NCBI GenBank assembly: GCA_963675235.2 | Contig: CAXXFU010000017.1 | Span: 308,888-372,887, forward strand | Direction of reading: 5' to 3' | Source of the DNA: Devosiaceae bacterium | GTDB lineage: Bacteria; Pseudomonadota; Alphaproteobacteria; Rhizobiales; Devosiaceae | DNA: 64,000 bases | In this document: positions 38,467 to 44,103 of the stretch, one piece after another | How the letters are laid out: each line of letters begins with the position of its first letter | Numbering within the stretch: position 1 is the stretch's first letter | Notes under the pieces: generated by a model | The model's database searches: none | The model's input: the letters and a program-made list of their open reading frames with translations, nothing else | What the model was told of the DNA's origin: nothing | Program-made: the position numbers and the translations under genes

Positions 38467-39213
38467 TTAGCCTTCGATCTTGGCCAGGACCTCGTCGCTC
38501 ATGTCGAAATTGGCGTAGGTGTTCTGGACGTCGTCATCGTCCTCGAGCGCGTCGATCAGCTTCATCAGTGTCGCGCCCTTGTCGGCGTCGACCTCGACAT
38601 AGTTCTGCGGCTTGAACACCGGCTTGACCGCCTCGGCTTCGCCGAGCGTGGCGGCAAGAGCGGCCGACACATCGCCGATCGCCTCGAAGGCGCAATAGAT
38701 GGTGTGTCCGTCTTCCTCGTCGCTTTCGACATCGTCGGCGCCGGCCTCGATCGCGGCTTCCATGACGGCATCGGCCGAACCGGCCGAGGCCGGATAGTCG
38801 ATCTCGCCGACCCGGTCGAACATGAAGGCAACCGAATTGGATTCGCCCATCGCCCCGCCGTTCTTGGAGAAGATCGCCTTGAGATTGGCATTCGTGCGGT
38901 TGCGGTTGTCGGTCAGCGCCTCGACGATGATTGCCACCCCGCCCGGACCATAGCCCTCGTAGCGGATCTCTTCGTAGTTCTCAGTATCGGTCGAGGCCTT
39001 GTTGACGGCGCGGGCGATGTTGTCCTTGGGCATCGACTGCGCCTTGGCGTTCTGGATCGCCAGACGAAGACGCGGATTGAAGTCGGGATCGGGCATGCCC
39101 ATCTTGGCCGCCACGGTGATTTCCTTGGAAAGCTTGGAAAACATCTTCGAGCGGATCGCGTCGGACTTGCCCTTGCGGTGCATGATGTTCTTGGCGTGTG
39201 AATGGCCGGCCAT
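38467..39213 (-). CDS. yebC: YebC/PmpR family DNA-binding transcriptional regulator
   Basis: [28 protein letters not shown] is the invariant family N-terminus. 248 aa. Confidence 0.95.
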
Positions 39214-39294
39214 GTTGCCTCTACGTCATCCAGTTGTGAGGAGATTGGACGTGCTTATAAGAGAAGCCCGAGCGCCGGTCAAAAGGGTCCTGCA

Positions 39295-40185
39295 ATGAAT
39301 GCGAAAATCGATCTGCCGGATTTCCCGATTGACGGCGGCTGCCAATGCGGTGCTGTGCGTTACACGCTCAAGGCGCCGCCGGTGGTTTTCTACATCTGCC
39401 ACTGCACCGAGTGCCAGACACAGGCCTCGTCCGGGTTCGGGGAATCGATGCGGGTGCGCAAGGCGGACCTCGAAATCTCGGGCGTGCTTCACCAGTACGA
39501 GCGCCCGTCCCCGAGCGGTGGGGTCATCGGCGATTTTTGCCCGAAGTGCGGCACGCGCCTGTTTCATGGACGGCGGGCCTACAAGGACACACACAATATC
39601 AAGGCAGGCACGCTCGATGACACGAGCTGGCTTCGCCCCGCCGGCCATATCTGGACGCAAAGCAAGCAGCCCTGGGTGCGGATCGGCCCGGAGGAGCTGG
39701 CATACGCGCAGCAGCCGGACGACGGCTATGCCGCCCTGATCGCGCGCTGGAACGAGATGATCGCGGCGGCAGAACCACACAAAGCGCCGGACAAGGTACC
39801 GGGATTGCGCCGGCAATATCACTTCCGCCCCAGCACCAACGGCTATTACGCCTGGGATGTGCACCGTCTGATCGCCCTCAGCCGCGACCTGCCGCGCCTT
39901 TCACTCGATCCCGAAACCATTGCCGAGCTCGGCGAGAGCTACTGGTTCGGCGGCGACAACGCCAGCCCGACGGGTCGCGACCTGCTGGTTCACATGCGCC
40001 TGATGAACGAGGTCGATTTCGATCACCCGATCATCCTTTGTGCCGAGGGCCGGGTGATGGACGGCATGCACCGGGTGATGAAGGCCGTTCTCGACGGCCG
40101 CAAGACCATCCCGGCGGTGCGCTTCGAGACGACGCCGGCGCCCGACCATGTCGATGTGCAGCCTGATGATCTCAGCTACGACTGA
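39295..40185 (+). CDS. Fusion protein: N-terminal GFA domain plus C-terminal ParB/sulfiredoxin-like domain
   Basis: ORF 39202..40185, with the start re-chosen at the ATG at 39295. The N-terminus carries GGCQCGAVRY...CHCTECQTQASSGFG...CPKCG (GFA). The C-terminus carries HPIILCAEGRVMDGMHRVMKAVLDGRKTIPAVRF, resembling the ParB/Srx ..DG.HR....G...IP motif. The C-terminal assignment is an inference. Confidence 0.7.
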   Translation: MNAKIDLPDFPIDGGCQCGAVRYTLKAPPVVFYICHCTECQTQASSGFGESMRVRKADLEISGVLHQYERPSPSGGVIGDFCPKCGTRLFHGRRAYKDTHNIKAGTLDDTSWLRPAGHIWTQSKQPWVRIGPEELAYAQQPDDGYAALIARWNEMIAAAEPHKAPDKVPGLRRQYHFRPSTNGYYAWDVHRLIALSRDLPRLSLDPETIAELGESYWFGGDNASPTGRDLLVHMRLMNEVDFDHPIILCAEGRVMDGMHRVMKAVLDGRKTIPAVRFETTPAPDHVDVQPDDLSYD

Positions 40186-40280
40186 GTGTCGGCAAGGCTG
40201 AAACGCCCGCATATCGGGGCTTTTGCCGGGGCGGAAACCGTGTCAGCGGCTTCACGAATTATTATTGTTAAAAAATCCTT

Positions 40281-40313: not shown

Positions 40314-40329
40314 GCCAATGCGAATTGGC
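40314..40329 (+). promoter_or_regulatory. Leader hairpin GCCAAT-GCGA-ATTGGC (GNRA loop), unit 1
   Basis: Perfect 6-bp stem. The paralogous unit keeps the stem and changes the loop to GAAA. Confidence 0.45.
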
Positions 40330-40405
40330 CGCTCATTTGATGACGAAAACCATCCATCCGAACCACGGCGCCATGCGGCGCCCGACCGAACCAACAGGAT
40401 TTCCA

Positions 40406-40804
40406 ATGATCAAGCAGCTTTCCGCCGCCTTCGCCCTCAGCCTCGTTCTCCTGCCGCTGGCGAGCCGCGCCTACGCCCAGTGCGTTGCCGGACGCCCCTG
40501 CCGCACCCCCACGACGACGGCGACAGCGACCGCGCCCGCCGACCCGACCCCGACGGTGTGTTTCTTCACCTCGACCAATTTCAAGGGCCCGCGCTTTTGT
40601 GAATCGGGCCAGCGTTCGGTGTTCACGGTTCCGGCCGAGTGGCGCGACTCGATCAAGTCGATCACCGTCGGCGACCGTACCGAGGTCCGCATCTGCCCCG
40701 AGTTCACCCTCAAGGGCGATTGCGGGCTGATCGGCCGCGATACCGACGAACTGCAGCGCGGTCTGTTCGACCAGGTCTATTCCTACGCGATCGACAAGAC
40801 CTGA
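40406..40804 (+). CDS. Small secreted Cys-rich protein, beta/gamma-crystallin-like (peptidase-inhibitor-I36-like) fold suspected
   Basis: ORF 40325..40804, with the start re-chosen at MIKQLSAAFALSLVLLPLASRAYA (signal peptide). It has six Cys and a Greek-key-like motif FTSTNFKG...SIKSITV. It is a paralogue of 41203..41589. Confidence 0.75.
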   Translation: MIKQLSAAFALSLVLLPLASRAYAQCVAGRPCRTPTTTATATAPADPTPTVCFFTSTNFKGPRFCESGQRSVFTVPAEWRDSIKSITVGDRTEVRICPEFTLKGDCGLIGRDTDELQRGLFDQVYSYAIDKT

Positions 40805-41202: not shown

Positions 41203-41589
41203 ATGAACACGCGCATCCTTACAGCATTCGTCCTGTCGCTGGCACTCACCCCGATCGCCAGCGCCGCCTATGCCCAGGCAGCCTGCCCCAACCAGCGCTG
41301 CCCGAGCGACCCCGCCCCGACCCTGCCGACCGCCCAGATCTGCTTCTACTCGGGTGAAGCGCAGACGGGCACCTTCTTCTGCGAATCCGGCCAGCGCAGC
41401 GTCGCTGCCGTCCCGGCGCAGTGGCGCTCGCGCATCAAGTCGCTCGGCATCGGCGACCACAGCTCCGTCAGGGTCTGCTCCAAGCAGACGCTCGGCGGCA
41501 CCTGCGAGCAATATGACAAGAACATCGACACGCTGCCCAAGGGCCTTCTCAACCACGTCTATTCCTACGACATCCGCCAGGCCTACTGA
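41203..41589 (+). CDS. Small secreted Cys-rich protein, paralogue of 40406..40804
   Basis: Signal peptide MNTRILTAFVLSLALTPIASAAYA. The same six-Cys spacing is kept, along with the shared blocks FCESGQRSV..VPA.WR..IKS and L.N.VYSY.I. Confidence 0.75.
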   Translation: MNTRILTAFVLSLALTPIASAAYAQAACPNQRCPSDPAPTLPTAQICFYSGEAQTGTFFCESGQRSVAAVPAQWRSRIKSLGIGDHSSVRVCSKQTLGGTCEQYDKNIDTLPKGLLNHVYSYDIRQAY

Positions 41590-41909
41590 TGGCCTGTCGA
41601 TACGTGCTCTCCCGGCAGCCGCTGCCGTGAAAACGATGGCGGCTGCTGAATTGGCATCCGCAGGCGCCCGGCTCCGGTGTTTCCCGATGCGTGTGACGCG
41701 GACATGACCTCTCAGCAAGAAACCGAAGTGATTGCTTAACCGGATGTTTTCGGGTTCGGCACGATAGTACTCGCGCTTCATTTTGGTTTGATTGTTGCGA
41801 TTGTTGATCCGATGCTTTGCCGCAAGTGCGTGCGCATATCTGCTTCGTTCTTGAACCTGCAGGAACAGTTACCCATCGGCCTGTTGGCGCCATCGGGCGG
41901 GAGGCATGA

Positions 41910-42644
41910 TTGAACCTGCGGGCATTCATTATAGCTGTTGGCTTCGTGTTGGTCGGAGGCGGTTTGTGGGTCTTTTCGACCTTCGCCGGCTTGTTTGGTG
42001 ACTGGGGCTCCTACAATTGGAACCAGCAACTGACGGTTGTGGTGGAGACGCCCGAAGGCGAGCGGACTGGCTCCGCCGTCACCCATGTCGCCCTCAGACT
42101 GCTCCAACCCGGGTCGCGATCGATCAGCGCCGCCAGCTCCGGGGAACGTTCGAACGGCGAAGCCGTCGTGGTGCCGCTTCCTGAAGGCCGATATCTGTTC
42201 GTCTTGCGGGCCAAGAACGCAAGCATCCTGCCTCAGGCTGCCTTTGCCGGCACTCTAATGACCGAGGCCGACCACAAGCGACTCGATTATGTCCAGAGGT
42301 TCTACGGACGGCTGGTGGGGCAGCGCGGGCTCTCAGGTCCCCTGCCACGCGGCGCCTATCCCCGCTTCGTCACCTTCGACGACCTCTCCGAGCCCGCTAC
42401 GGTCAAGCTCGTCGATCCCGACGACCTCGCCGCCACATTCGGCCCCGGCTACGCGCTCAAATCGGTGACGCTGGAGATCACCAGTGAGGCAATTGACTTC
42501 GGCAGAGTGGAGGTGCTGCTGCCGTGGATCAATGACTACTACAACAAACGCCTAGACGGTCAGCGATTTGGCAATGGAGACGCACCGAACCAGATCGCCA
42601 ACTCACTTTCCGCCGGCGTCTTCAAAGCAGGTGATCGCCGATGA
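41910..42644 (+). CDS. Membrane-anchored protein of unknown family, tandem paralogue 1
   Basis: 244 aa. TTG start 7 nt after GGGAGG. It has a single N-terminal TM helix and no domain I recognise. Confidence 0.75.
   Translation: MNLRAFIIAVGFVLVGGGLWVFSTFAGLFGDWGSYNWNQQLTVVVETPEGERTGSAVTHVALRLLQPGSRSISAASSGERSNGEAVVVPLPEGRYLFVLRAKNASILPQAAFAGTLMTEADHKRLDYVQRFYGRLVGQRGLSGPLPRGAYPRFVTFDDLSEPATVKLVDPDDLAATFGPGYALKSVTLEITSEAIDFGRVEVLLPWINDYYNKRLDGQRFGNGDAPNQIANSLSAGVFKAGDRR
41946..42435 (+). repeat. 490-nt near-identical tract, copy a (within paralogue 1)
   Basis: Identical to 43399-43888 apart from 42257 A versus 43710 C, compared by eye. The identical antisense shadow ORFs 42011..42226 and 43464..43679 in the ORF track corroborate this. 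Confidence 0.85.
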
Positions 42645-43369
42645 CCCGGAATGTGCTGATCATTCTCGGTATAGTGTTGGTCGCAGGCGGCGTGTGGGTC
42701 TATTCGGCCTATGTCGGCCTTTTTGGCGATTGGGAGTCGTTCAGCTGGAACCAGAAGCTGACCGTGACCGTCGAAACGCCCGAAGGCGAGCGGTCGGGAT
42801 CCGCCGTCAGTCATATTGAGGCACGCTTTCTCAAGCCTGGCTCGAAGTCCATCAGCGCCGCCAGCAGCGGTGGACGTTCCTATGGCGAGGCGGTGGTGGT
42901 GGCGCTCCCGGATGACAGATACCTCTTCGTGCTCCGCGCAAAAAACGCCGACACGCTCACGCAAGGGGCATTCTACAAGCAGGTTCTTGGCGCGGATGCC
43001 GAGCGCATCGGCAATGTCGCGGACTACTATCGACGGATGCTGCGGCGATCCGGCCTGTCCGGCCCAATTCAACGCGACACCTATCCGCGCTTCGTCACCT
43101 TCGACGACATCTCGGACCCCACTTCGGTCAAGCTCGTCGATCCCGATGACCTCGCCGCCACGTTCGGCCCCGGCTACGCCCTCAAATCAGTAGTTCTGGA
43201 GTTGACCGGCGAGTCGCCGAGATACGGGAAAGTGGAGGAGGCGCTGCCGTGGATCGATGAGTATTACGGCACCAAACTAGACGGCAGGCAGCTTGAGACC
43301 ATTGATGCTCCAAACCGTCTCGCAAACTCCCTTTCAGCAGGTGCATTCAAAGCAGGTGATCGCCGATGA
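42641..43369 (+). CDS. Membrane-anchored protein of unknown family, tandem paralogue 2
   Basis: 242 aa. The ATG overlaps the stop of paralogue 1 (ATGA). It is roughly two-thirds identical to paralogues 1 and 3 by eye. Confidence 0.8.
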   Translation: MTRNVLIILGIVLVAGGVWVYSAYVGLFGDWESFSWNQKLTVTVETPEGERSGSAVSHIEARFLKPGSKSISAASSGGRSYGEAVVVALPDDRYLFVLRAKNADTLTQGAFYKQVLGADAERIGNVADYYRRMLRRSGLSGPIQRDTYPRFVTFDDISDPTSVKLVDPDDLAATFGPGYALKSVVLELTGESPRYGKVEEALPWIDEYYGTKLDGRQLETIDAPNRLANSLSAGAFKAGDRR

Positions 43370-44103
43370 CCCGGAATGTGCTGATCATTCTCGGCATTGT
43401 GTTGGTCGGAGGCGGTTTGTGGGTCTTTTCGACCTTCGCCGGCTTGTTTGGTGACTGGGGCTCCTACAATTGGAACCAGCAACTGACGGTTGTGGTGGAG
43501 ACGCCCGAAGGCGAGCGGACTGGCTCCGCCGTCACCCATGTCGCCCTCAGACTGCTCCAACCCGGGTCGCGATCGATCAGCGCCGCCAGCTCCGGGGAAC
43601 GTTCGAACGGCGAAGCCGTCGTGGTGCCGCTTCCTGAAGGCCGATATCTGTTCGTCTTGCGGGCCAAGAACGCAAGCATCCTGCCTCAGGCTGCCTTTGC
43701 CGGCACTCTCATGACCGAGGCCGACCACAAGCGACTCGATTATGTCCAGAGGTTCTACGGACGGCTGGTGGGGCAGCGCGGGCTCTCAGGTCCCCTGCCA
43801 CGCGGCGCCTATCCCCGCTTCGTCACCTTCGACGACCTCTCCGAGCCCGCTACGGTCAAGCTCGTCGATCCCGACGACCTCGCCGCCAGCTTCGGCCCCG
43901 GCTACGCACTCAGATCGGTGGTGCTGGAGCTGACGGGGGAGCCGCCGAGATACGGGAAGGTGGAGGCAGTTCTGCCGTGGTTTTCCGAGTACCGAGAGAA
44001 GCATTTCAGGCTGAACGGGGAGCGCTGCATAGCGTGTCCGGTTGCCAGCGAAAACATCGCCGACATGATTGGTACGGGCGTGTTCTCATATCGAGGAAGG
44101 TAG
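43366..44103 (+). CDS. Membrane-anchored protein of unknown family, tandem paralogue 3 (mosaic)
   Basis: 245 aa. The ATG overlaps the stop of paralogue 2 (ATGA). The first 14 residues match paralogue 2 apart from G for A at residue 15. Residues about 12-174 are encoded by a tract almost identical to paralogue 1. The C-terminal tail is unique. Confidence 0.8.
   Translation: MTRNVLIILGIVLVGGGLWVFSTFAGLFGDWGSYNWNQQLTVVVETPEGERTGSAVTHVALRLLQPGSRSISAASSGERSNGEAVVVPLPEGRYLFVLRAKNASILPQAAFAGTLMTEADHKRLDYVQRFYGRLVGQRGLSGPLPRGAYPRFVTFDDLSEPATVKLVDPDDLAASFGPGYALRSVVLELTGEPPRYGKVEAVLPWFSEYREKHFRLNGERCIACPVASENIADMIGTGVFSYRGR
43399..43888 (+). repeat. 490-nt near-identical tract, copy b (within paralogue 3)
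   Basis: See 41946-42435. The offset is exactly 1453 nt. Confidence 0.85.

Follow-up and report, generated by a model that had tools for sequence, protein, structure and literature searches.

A recombining array of candidate orphan immunity genes in a Devosiaceae bacterium and related HlyC-lipase-RTX modules in other bacteria

In Neisseria meningitidis, the lipoprotein FrpD is encoded directly upstream of the RTX (repeats-in-toxin) protein FrpC and binds FrpC's N-terminal domain at a Kd of ~0.2 nM (PMC5233953). FrpD has been proposed as an immunity protein because Smlt3025, an immunity protein of the Xanthomonadales-like type IV secretion system (X-T4SS), shares its topology (PMC6759196), and Tli3, a lipoprotein of the outer membrane, acts as the immunity protein to the Tle3 lipase (PMC9860674). 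The present analysis concerns an array of three overlapping genes in a 64,000-nucleotide (nt) stretch of DNA from a Devosiaceae bacterium (GenBank assembly GCA_963675235.2, contig CAXXFU010000017.1, positions 308,888 to 372,887 of the forward strand; the whole stretch is called the window below), and compares this array and its relatives with the described systems. Immunity genes are also found as orphan clusters (e.g., orphan cdiI and rhsI modules and the acquired interbacterial defence islands of Bacteroidales), and Tli genes likewise occur as multi-copy and orphan copies. On balance, the array in the window probably consists of orphan periplasmic immunity-like proteins directed against the lipase head of HlyC-associated RTX toxins, reshuffled by recombination.

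The three genes of the array are as follows.

41910-42644, + strand: copy 1 (F1), 244 amino acids (aa), TTG start; predicted N-terminal hydrophobic anchor without a lipobox Cys, then a predicted extracytoplasmic domain; matched by the family hidden Markov model (HMM) at E = 7.5e-78
42641-43369, + strand: copy 2 (F2), 242 aa; its nearest relatives lie outside the array
43366-44103, + strand: copy 3 (F3), 245 aa; a mosaic of a copy-2 5' end, a copy-1 body, a short copy-2-like block and a CxxC tail of the type found in the family proteins P0113 and P0040

In what follows, F denotes the family gene or protein of the array, L the open reading frame (ORF) with a lipase head found downstream of F in relatives, and H the HlyC-type ORF found upstream. 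A scan of one genome per species yielded 217 matching stretches and 78 loci, and three HMMs (for F, L and H) were mapped onto all reading frames of these loci. An L ORF directly follows F, on the same strand and abutting or overlapping it, for 70 of the 117 near-complete F genes and in 53 of 79 loci. This ORF begins 'ISKDLFLAILSMDSYNRGY...AAGFYAVAY...VISYRGTD...GHSLGGGLAG', and both its GHSLGG nucleophile elbow and a downstream His are invariant. The L profile reaches 32 bits against Mbeg1-like, which is above the cutoff, falls just below the cutoff for Lipase_3, and weakly matches class-3 lipases and an effector lipase of a type VI secretion system (T6SS; PDB 7ubz_B). Judged by these matches, L is a predicted lipase-like alpha/beta hydrolase domain that would make up the first ~330 residues of an RTX protein. 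The L ORF is long in 12 loci, where it measures at least 336 aa and exceeds 2,400 aa in L002, L037, L043, L052 and L053, and RTX repeats were present in all four of the long L ORFs scanned (HemolysinCabind at 139 bits in L002, where immunoglobulin (Ig) and cadherin domains are also present). The F gene lies immediately upstream of the RTX protein gene, on the same strand, in L002, L037, L043, L052, L053, L040, L059 and L077, an arrangement that is not seen in the window. An H match is found nearby in 15 loci, with the order H-F-L in L004, L037, L043, L052, L060, L062, L067 and L083, and H is an RTX acyltransferase of the HlyC type (PF02794, with scores of 46 and 74 bits and a cutoff of 25). 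Examples of the full module occur in Hoeflea sp. AS16 (L043), a Nitrospirales metagenome-assembled genome (MAG; L037) and Erythrobacter sp. EC-HK427 (L002). An earlier, sequence-only reading of the window had guessed at an array of immunity proteins, and the relatives lend this guess strong comparative support, since F precedes a lipase-like ORF, in places that of a giant RTX protein, with HlyC upstream in a subset.

The lipase head is frequently decayed where the family gene is not. Truncation affects 56 of the 70 L ORFs, whose HMM coverage stops at ~30, ~80, ~100 or ~150 residues, and the F gene next to them is intact. Between two and four F copies, mostly 45-65% identical in aa sequence, are present in 25 of 79 loci, and in L039 they form an array with the order F-L(30)-F-L(30)-F-L(30)-F-L(80), the numbers being the residues of L that remain. 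At positions 458-3779 of L039, and also in L005 and L024, the repeat unit comprises one F and only the first ~30 lipase codons, which suggests that the unit of duplication or recombination ends in the conserved 'LAILSMDSYNRGY' head motif. By visual inspection of N-terminal sequences, full modules adjoin ORFs resembling integrases, transposases, ParB or TraG. No VgrG, PAAR or Hcp was noted by eye among the long upstream ORFs in seven loci, where no profile scan was run.

Two further observations concern the range and the state of such loci. The chromosome of a Nitrospirales MAG (OZ244992.1) carries two separate multi-cassette loci: in L040, four F genes alternate with three lipase-RTX ORFs of ~1,000-1,200 aa (the last cut by the end of the locus) and one vestige, and in L059, each of three F matches, one of which is cut off by the edge of the locus, is followed by a lipase ORF. 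The module has thus spread outside the Alphaproteobacteria and can be highly amplified. In an Oricola sp. MAG (NZ_OZ246003.1; L063, 7038-10889), several fragmented or frameshifted F matches with partial HMM coverage extend over adjacent ORFs, and these may represent an immunity array in decay or indel errors of long reads.

Within the 64-kb window, no ORF matching L or H and none with RTX motifs was found. The absence of a toxin gene next to the array, pointed out before from the sequence, therefore holds for all 64 kb, and the partner lipase or RTX gene is found in relatives instead. Two metagenomic contigs carry the same chromosomal site. In the first (L081), the order is a GFA-domain gene, two I36-like genes, one F, a 113-aa L vestige and ymdB; its F is 48-50% identical in aa to copies 1 and 2 and 44% to copy 3, the blocks on the GFA side and at ymdB are 86-89% identical in nt, and YmdB is 90% identical in aa. 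In the second (L079), the order is YebC, GFA, one F, ymdB, the 5-formyltetrahydrofolate (5-FTHF) cyclo-ligase gene and zapA; its F is 54% identical in aa to the window copies, and YmdB is 89% identical. These relatives thus hold one syntenic copy each, yet at 48-54% aa identity against ~90% in the flanks it is highly divergent and does not behave as a single conserved gene. The synteny indicates that the module sat at this site in an ancestor, that the toxin head decayed, and that the F content is hypervariable against a conserved background.

Copy 2 is closer to two family proteins from other samples (P0002 at 79% and P0003 at 78%) than to its neighbours in the array (63-64%), and the array is therefore no young triplication in place. 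P0003 is followed by a 177-aa truncated lipase head, and P0113, which has a tail of the copy-3 type, stands in an H-F-L operon. All pairwise ratios of nonsynonymous to synonymous substitution rates (dN/dS) are 0.22-0.31 (0.31 for copy 1 versus copy 2), which places the orphan copies under purifying selection.

The ~210-aa domain shared by the three proteins represents a previously undescribed family and probably a new fold. Searches of the three proteins against Pfam, NCBIfam, PADLOC and PHROGs gave no usable match: the best Pfam scores are 12-15 bits against cutoffs of 26-28, NCBIfam and PADLOC returned nothing, and PHROGs gave only matches at E>0.1, which lie on the transmembrane segment. 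A word-indexed search recovered 168 relatives, all annotated as 'hypothetical' and none with a Pfam domain, and those with a name belong to marine Alphaproteobacteria (e.g., Hoeflea, Nitratireductor, Salaquimonas, Pseudemcibacter, Shinella, Albidovulum). When 1.84 billion cluster representatives were searched exhaustively with the family profile, 5,465 of them qualified as members at E<=1e-3 and 4,322 still did so at E<=1e-10; counted as clusters at 50% identity, the family size is about 5,500. The AlphaFold model of copy 2, built from an alignment of 63 sequences, has a predicted local distance difference test (pLDDT) score of 92.4 and a predicted template modelling (pTM) score of 0.86, and shows a beta-rich structure in which a helix at the N terminus (residues 2-28) is accompanied by a long beta hairpin, by additional strands and by a few helices. 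Foldseek comparison of this model with the PDB gave nothing significant (the 50 matches listed all have template modelling (TM) scores <= 0.23 and E >= 8e-3), nor did comparison with BFVD, and the family profile has 0 matches to PDB sequences at E<=10. A lipoprotein-carrier fold of the LolA/LolB/RseB type was considered and dismissed, the corresponding Foldseek rows (TM ~0.12) being noise and no evidence for it. Neither the family nor the H-F-L module was found described in the literature searched. The first impression that the proteins fit no recognised family is thus borne out by Pfam, NCBIfam, PADLOC, PHROGs and PDB sequences and by the lack of a Foldseek neighbour, and no well-characterised housekeeping family was matched.

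The conserved blocks that had been picked out in the three window copies are real, and several of them, including VDPDDLAA-FGPG and GEA, are near-invariant columns throughout the family. The N-terminal hydrophobic segment reported for each copy is likewise present, and corresponds to the helix of residues 2-28 in the model. Lipoboxes occur ahead of the domain in 143 of 257 members of the family, and in 25 of these 143 the +2 residue is Asp, whereas the window copies and their nearest relatives have 'LVAGG' or 'LVGGG' without a Cys and a longer hydrophobic helix. By either a lipobox or a hydrophobic helix, export to the periplasmic side is predicted across the family, and the domain would be extracytoplasmic in both cases.

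Set against these findings, the FrpD/FrpC pair (together with ORF1 of ApxIVA) and the Smlt3025/Smlt3024 pair resemble the F modules in that the gene for a large RTX protein is immediately preceded by one for an envelope lipoprotein of ~250 aa. The resemblance does not extend to sequence or fold, as F has no sequence similarity to FrpD or Smlt3025, and neither fold (5EDF for FrpD, 6PDK for Smlt3025) appears among the 50 Foldseek matches listed. Furthermore, the N-terminal domain of the RTX protein in F modules is a predicted lipase-like alpha/beta hydrolase, unlike that of FrpC; an HlyC gene accompanies a subset of the modules; tandem and orphan arrays are common; and the window copies have a predicted transmembrane anchor in place of a lipobox.

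This parallel raises the alternative that F is not an immunity protein at all, but an envelope-anchored receptor or retention partner that, like FrpD, binds the N-terminal domain of an RTX protein made by the same cell. Such a partner would tether the RTX protein at the surface, as has been suggested for FrpD and FrpC, or would hold or regulate its periplasmic N-terminal domain during stalled type I secretion, as with LapA-type adhesins, and the array in the window would then be made of remnants or of partners for an RTX protein encoded elsewhere. A lipoprotein gene directly before the RTX gene is indeed the frpDC order (PMC5233953), most family members are lipoproteins, and the Ig and cadherin repeats of some giants (L002) are typical of RTX adhesins. 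It is harder to reconcile a tether with F genes that have stayed intact under purifying selection next to a truncated RTX gene or in places with none, or with diverged multi-copy arrays that lack RTX genes; the window subfamily, which has no lipobox Cys, appears to be anchored in the inner membrane and would not be surface exposed, and the structural and sequence comparisons with FrpD and Smlt3025 were negative as described above. A role as an FrpD-like partner is therefore considered unlikely.

The Tli proteins of T6SS lipases offer a second comparison. Like Tli, F is a small, periplasm-facing and often lipidated protein encoded next to a GxSxG lipase, and the lipase head of F modules weakly matches the T6SS effector 7ubz_B. 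The lipase neighbour is present in relatives (70 of 117 F genes, with the GHSLGG motif invariant), and the window has no lipase head. Delivery in F modules would, in contrast, be of type I, as suggested by the RTX repeats and HlyC, rather than by a T6SS, and F has no homology to any Tli structure in the PDB by sequence or by Foldseek.

A partner of a lipase could also assist it. If F were a maturation or activation factor, the folding, activation or handover of the lipase domain would depend on it, in the way of the Lif foldases, and the arrays would correspond to several client lipases. The tight overlap of F with the lipase ORF, which resembles translational coupling, and the predicted anchoring of F on the periplasmic side, as in Lif, would suit this role, and a Tli of Enterobacter cloacae is said to activate its Tle as well. 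Lif foldases, however, are all-alpha and encoded downstream of their lipase, whereas the F model is beta-rich and F lies upstream of the lipase ORF. The lack of any kind of Pfam match means that there is none to the lipase-chaperone models, substrates of type I secretion systems (T1SS) do not fold in the periplasm, and orphan F copies persist without a client. Assistance to the lipase is accordingly regarded as very unlikely.

Orphan immunity clusters provide the third comparison. The F arrays share with them diverged paralogues without a functional toxin, toxin fragments alongside, recombination of cassettes, and a locus that is hypervariable between close relatives. For the window, this comprises diverged paralogues, 64 kb without L, H or RTX, dN/dS of 0.22-0.31, and the L081 vestige at the same site. 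Differences are also evident: in contrast to orphan cdiI and rhsI, where C-terminal toxin tips lie upstream, the vestiges at F loci are 5' (N-terminal) toxin heads located downstream of F, and the window array has lost even these vestiges and has genes that overlap by ATGA. The F system appears to work like a toxin-immunity pair combined with an orphan immunity island, yet it belongs to no described immunity family. What sets it apart is its tie to an RTX lipase, for which type I secretion is presumed in place of delivery by a T6SS, a T4SS or contact-dependent growth inhibition (CDI), and its cassettes, which carry toxin heads instead of tips.

The immunity interpretation is favored because of the tight linkage of F to the lipase ORF, the asymmetric decay of the two genes, purifying selection, diverged arrays, the hypervariable locus and the extracytoplasmic placement of the domain. 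According to this interpretation, the complete module would have the order found elsewhere, an acyltransferase of the HlyC type, F, and then a large or giant RTX-repeat protein with a lipase head. By analogy with Tli lipoproteins acting against T6SS Tle lipases, the family protein would bind the lipase domain on the periplasmic side of the envelope and neutralise it there, protecting the producer and any cell that keeps the F gene. The module would have landed between the GFA gene and ymdB in this lineage, after which the toxin would have decayed, leaving the 113-aa vestige in the close relative and nothing in the window of this genome. Purifying selection would have preserved the immunity genes, which would have multiplied to three diverged copies, and homologous recombination at conserved blocks may keep reshuffling them, with a 490-nt tract shared by copies 1 and 3 as the latest event.

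Several points weigh against the immunity interpretation. The link of the family protein to the lipase domain comes from gene context, and the family resembles no known immunity family by sequence or fold. Lipase_3 scores below the Pfam cutoff, which makes the lipase activity putative. No T1SS ATP-binding cassette (ABC) transporter was found consistently within 8 kb of full modules, a giant RTX protein exported by a T1SS would need a route into the periplasm of a competitor, and the target could be eukaryotic. The term 'orphan' is judged on 64 kb, and an intact toxin elsewhere in the genome may make the array non-orphan. Finally, distances among F bodies correlate with those among lipase heads (Mantel r = 0.45), a value confounded by linkage and phylogeny; for the F tail, r = 0.27. 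As the lipase head correlates better with the body than with the tail, the variable C-terminal tail is not claimed to be a toxin-specificity module.

A wider interpretation is advanced tentatively and with some doubt. The family may represent a new periplasmic immunity fold that marks a widespread and unrecognised weapon, namely giant RTX proteins that are associated with HlyC, are presumably secreted by a type I system and would kill competitors with an N-terminal lipase head; immunity and toxin-head cassettes would be exchanged by recombination, and many marine Alphaproteobacteria (and Nitrospirales) would keep orphan arrays as a defence. If true, this would give direct genomic backing to the idea that RTX systems of the FrpC/FrpD kind are antibacterial toxin-immunity pairs. 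The module of HlyC, F and lipase-RTX protein would be a candidate type I-secreted toxin-immunity system, a class that is mostly hypothetical and for which the FrpC/FrpD proposal is the main example. About 5,500 unnamed clusters without a Pfam model or structural neighbour would gain a testable function and partner, cognate F/lipase pairs being at hand in L043, L037 and L002, and the window array would be a compact example of how immunity genes in the core chromosome can outlast a lost toxin while increasing in number and recombining. The present data contribute three things: a candidate for the toxin partner, an estimate of how large and how widely distributed the family is, and evidence that the window array is a recombining orphan remnant at a core-genome site that is hypervariable. 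They also indicate a possibly widespread system of RTX-based antagonism.

Recombination among the copies in the window is recorded in the following segments.

41946-42435, + strand: 490-nt tract, copy 1 side (donor or recipient), 489/490 identical to 43399-43888
43399-43888, + strand: 490-nt tract, copy 3 side; 99% identical to copy 1 versus 70% for copy 2 in the repeat-family analysis
43921-43962 (approximate), + strand: short copy-2-like block ELTGE.PRYGKVE in copy 3, approximately matching 43193-43234 of copy 2

The tract was described in the sequence-only reading with a single mismatch (42257 A / 43710 C), and it was recovered at exactly these positions with no other mismatch. In a codon-level alignment, nt identity is 69.4% between copies 1 and 2, 68.3% between copies 2 and 3, and 85.7% between copies 1 and 3, the last value being due entirely to the tract; outside of it, the copies are 63-64% identical in aa. 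Windows along the same alignment also reproduce the mosaic structure attributed to copy 3: it agrees with copy 2 over nt 1-30 (27/27) and with copy 1 over nt ~37-526, is again closer to copy 2 over nt ~571-600 (26/30 versus 15/30 for copy 1), and has a 3' end unlike both. At a background identity of ~70%, a 489/490 match has a probability of ~0.7^489, which is negligible and excludes chance. A simple tandem duplication with a period of 1,453 nt was rejected, as the identity stops sharply after 490 nt and the tail of copy 3 differs. Recombination between copies is the only simple reading of such a sharply bounded and nearly identical tract. The 5' end of the tract adjoins the conserved junction between genes, and its 3' end falls inside the block best conserved across all copies (VDPDDLAA.FGPGYAL; 27-28/30 nt in common with copy 2), positions that fit homologous recombination (gene conversion) seeded at conserved blocks.

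The pattern is not restricted to the window. Copies that share a body and differ in the tail occur in independent assemblies (copies 2 and 4 of L015, copies 1 and 2 of L004, and copies 1 and 3 of L048), and also in copies 2 and 4 of L040, where an internal divergent patch is present. Between copy 2 and P0003, the body is 91% identical with a synonymous substitution rate (dS) of 0.27, and the tail has diverged to a dS of 1.76. Mosaicism is therefore a family-wide property, and the earlier proposal that the copies recombine with one another agrees both with the sharp limits of the tract and with the similar mosaics in L004, L015, L040 and L048. The Cys-containing tail of copy 3, previously thought to be unique, turns out to be a family variant: its motif 'RLNGxxC[IV]ACPV[AS]SE' is shared with P0113, at 58% identity across 59 aa, and with P0040. 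The tract could alternatively have been created by the assembler, through a chimeric join or a collapse of paralogues, in which case the real copy 3 would have diverged from copy 1 to the same degree as copy 2. Short-read assemblers can go wrong at repeats of ~500 nt, and each of the window proteins is recorded on one contig only. An artefact would nevertheless have had to produce boundaries that are clean, in frame and within conserved blocks, together with one internal mismatch, and to leave the ORF of copy 3 intact, and body-shared, tail-different mosaics are present in the unrelated assemblies L004, L015, L040 and L048. Given that mosaicism extends across the family, an artefact of assembly is very unlikely.

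The gene boundaries within the array are marked by the following features.

41898-41903, + strand: Shine-Dalgarno-like GGGAGG, 6 nt upstream of the copy 1 TTG start (read from the sequence)
42621-42669, + strand: junction 1, identical 49 nt; spans the last codons of copy 1, which include AGGTGA (Shine-Dalgarno-like), then the ATGA overlap and the opening 10 codons of copy 2
43346-43394, + strand: junction 2, identical 49 nt; end of copy 2 and start of copy 3

The three ORFs of 244, 242 and 245 aa on the + strand, with ATGA stop/start overlaps at both gene boundaries, were reproduced as first described, and these overlaps suggest that the three predicted membrane-anchored copies are translationally coupled. 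An identical 49-nt junction had also been noted and does exist, at coordinates 9 nt to the left of those first given, since 42630-42678 and 43355-43403 differ at two positions near the 3' end; the exact match extends 19 nt to the left and 30 nt to the right of position 42640/43365. A promoter and terminator scan of the array found nothing above shuffled expectation, with no sigma-70-like promoter upstream. The GC content of the array is 0.58-0.65, which is not compositionally atypical, and copy 3 abuts ymdB, which lies on the opposite strand. Antisense ORFs at 41778-42107, 42560-43072 and 43264-43728 (- strand), and others like them, overlap the three genes, and the same antisense cluster lies opposite family genes in 66 loci; these were rejected as genes and are read as shadow ORFs of high-GC DNA.

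Directly upstream of the array, two paralogous genes (40325-40804 and 41203-41589, + strand) encode small secreted proteins, each with a signal peptide. These are the I36-like genes of the site (Inhibitor_I36 at 26 and 24 bits against a cutoff of 21; Crystall_3, a beta/gamma-crystallin model, stays under its threshold for the first one). The two share ~42-44% identity, and both are present in L081 (69-71% aa identity) and missing as separate genes in L079. The GFA-domain protein farther upstream (39202-40185, + strand) has 327 aa as compared with 177 aa in L081. Relative to L081, the GFA gene contains ~500 extra nt, especially at 39766-40272, that encode a C-terminal extension ('...RVMDGMHRVMKAVLDGRKTIPAVRF...') without a Pfam match, possibly the result of a fusion or an insertion beside the variable locus.

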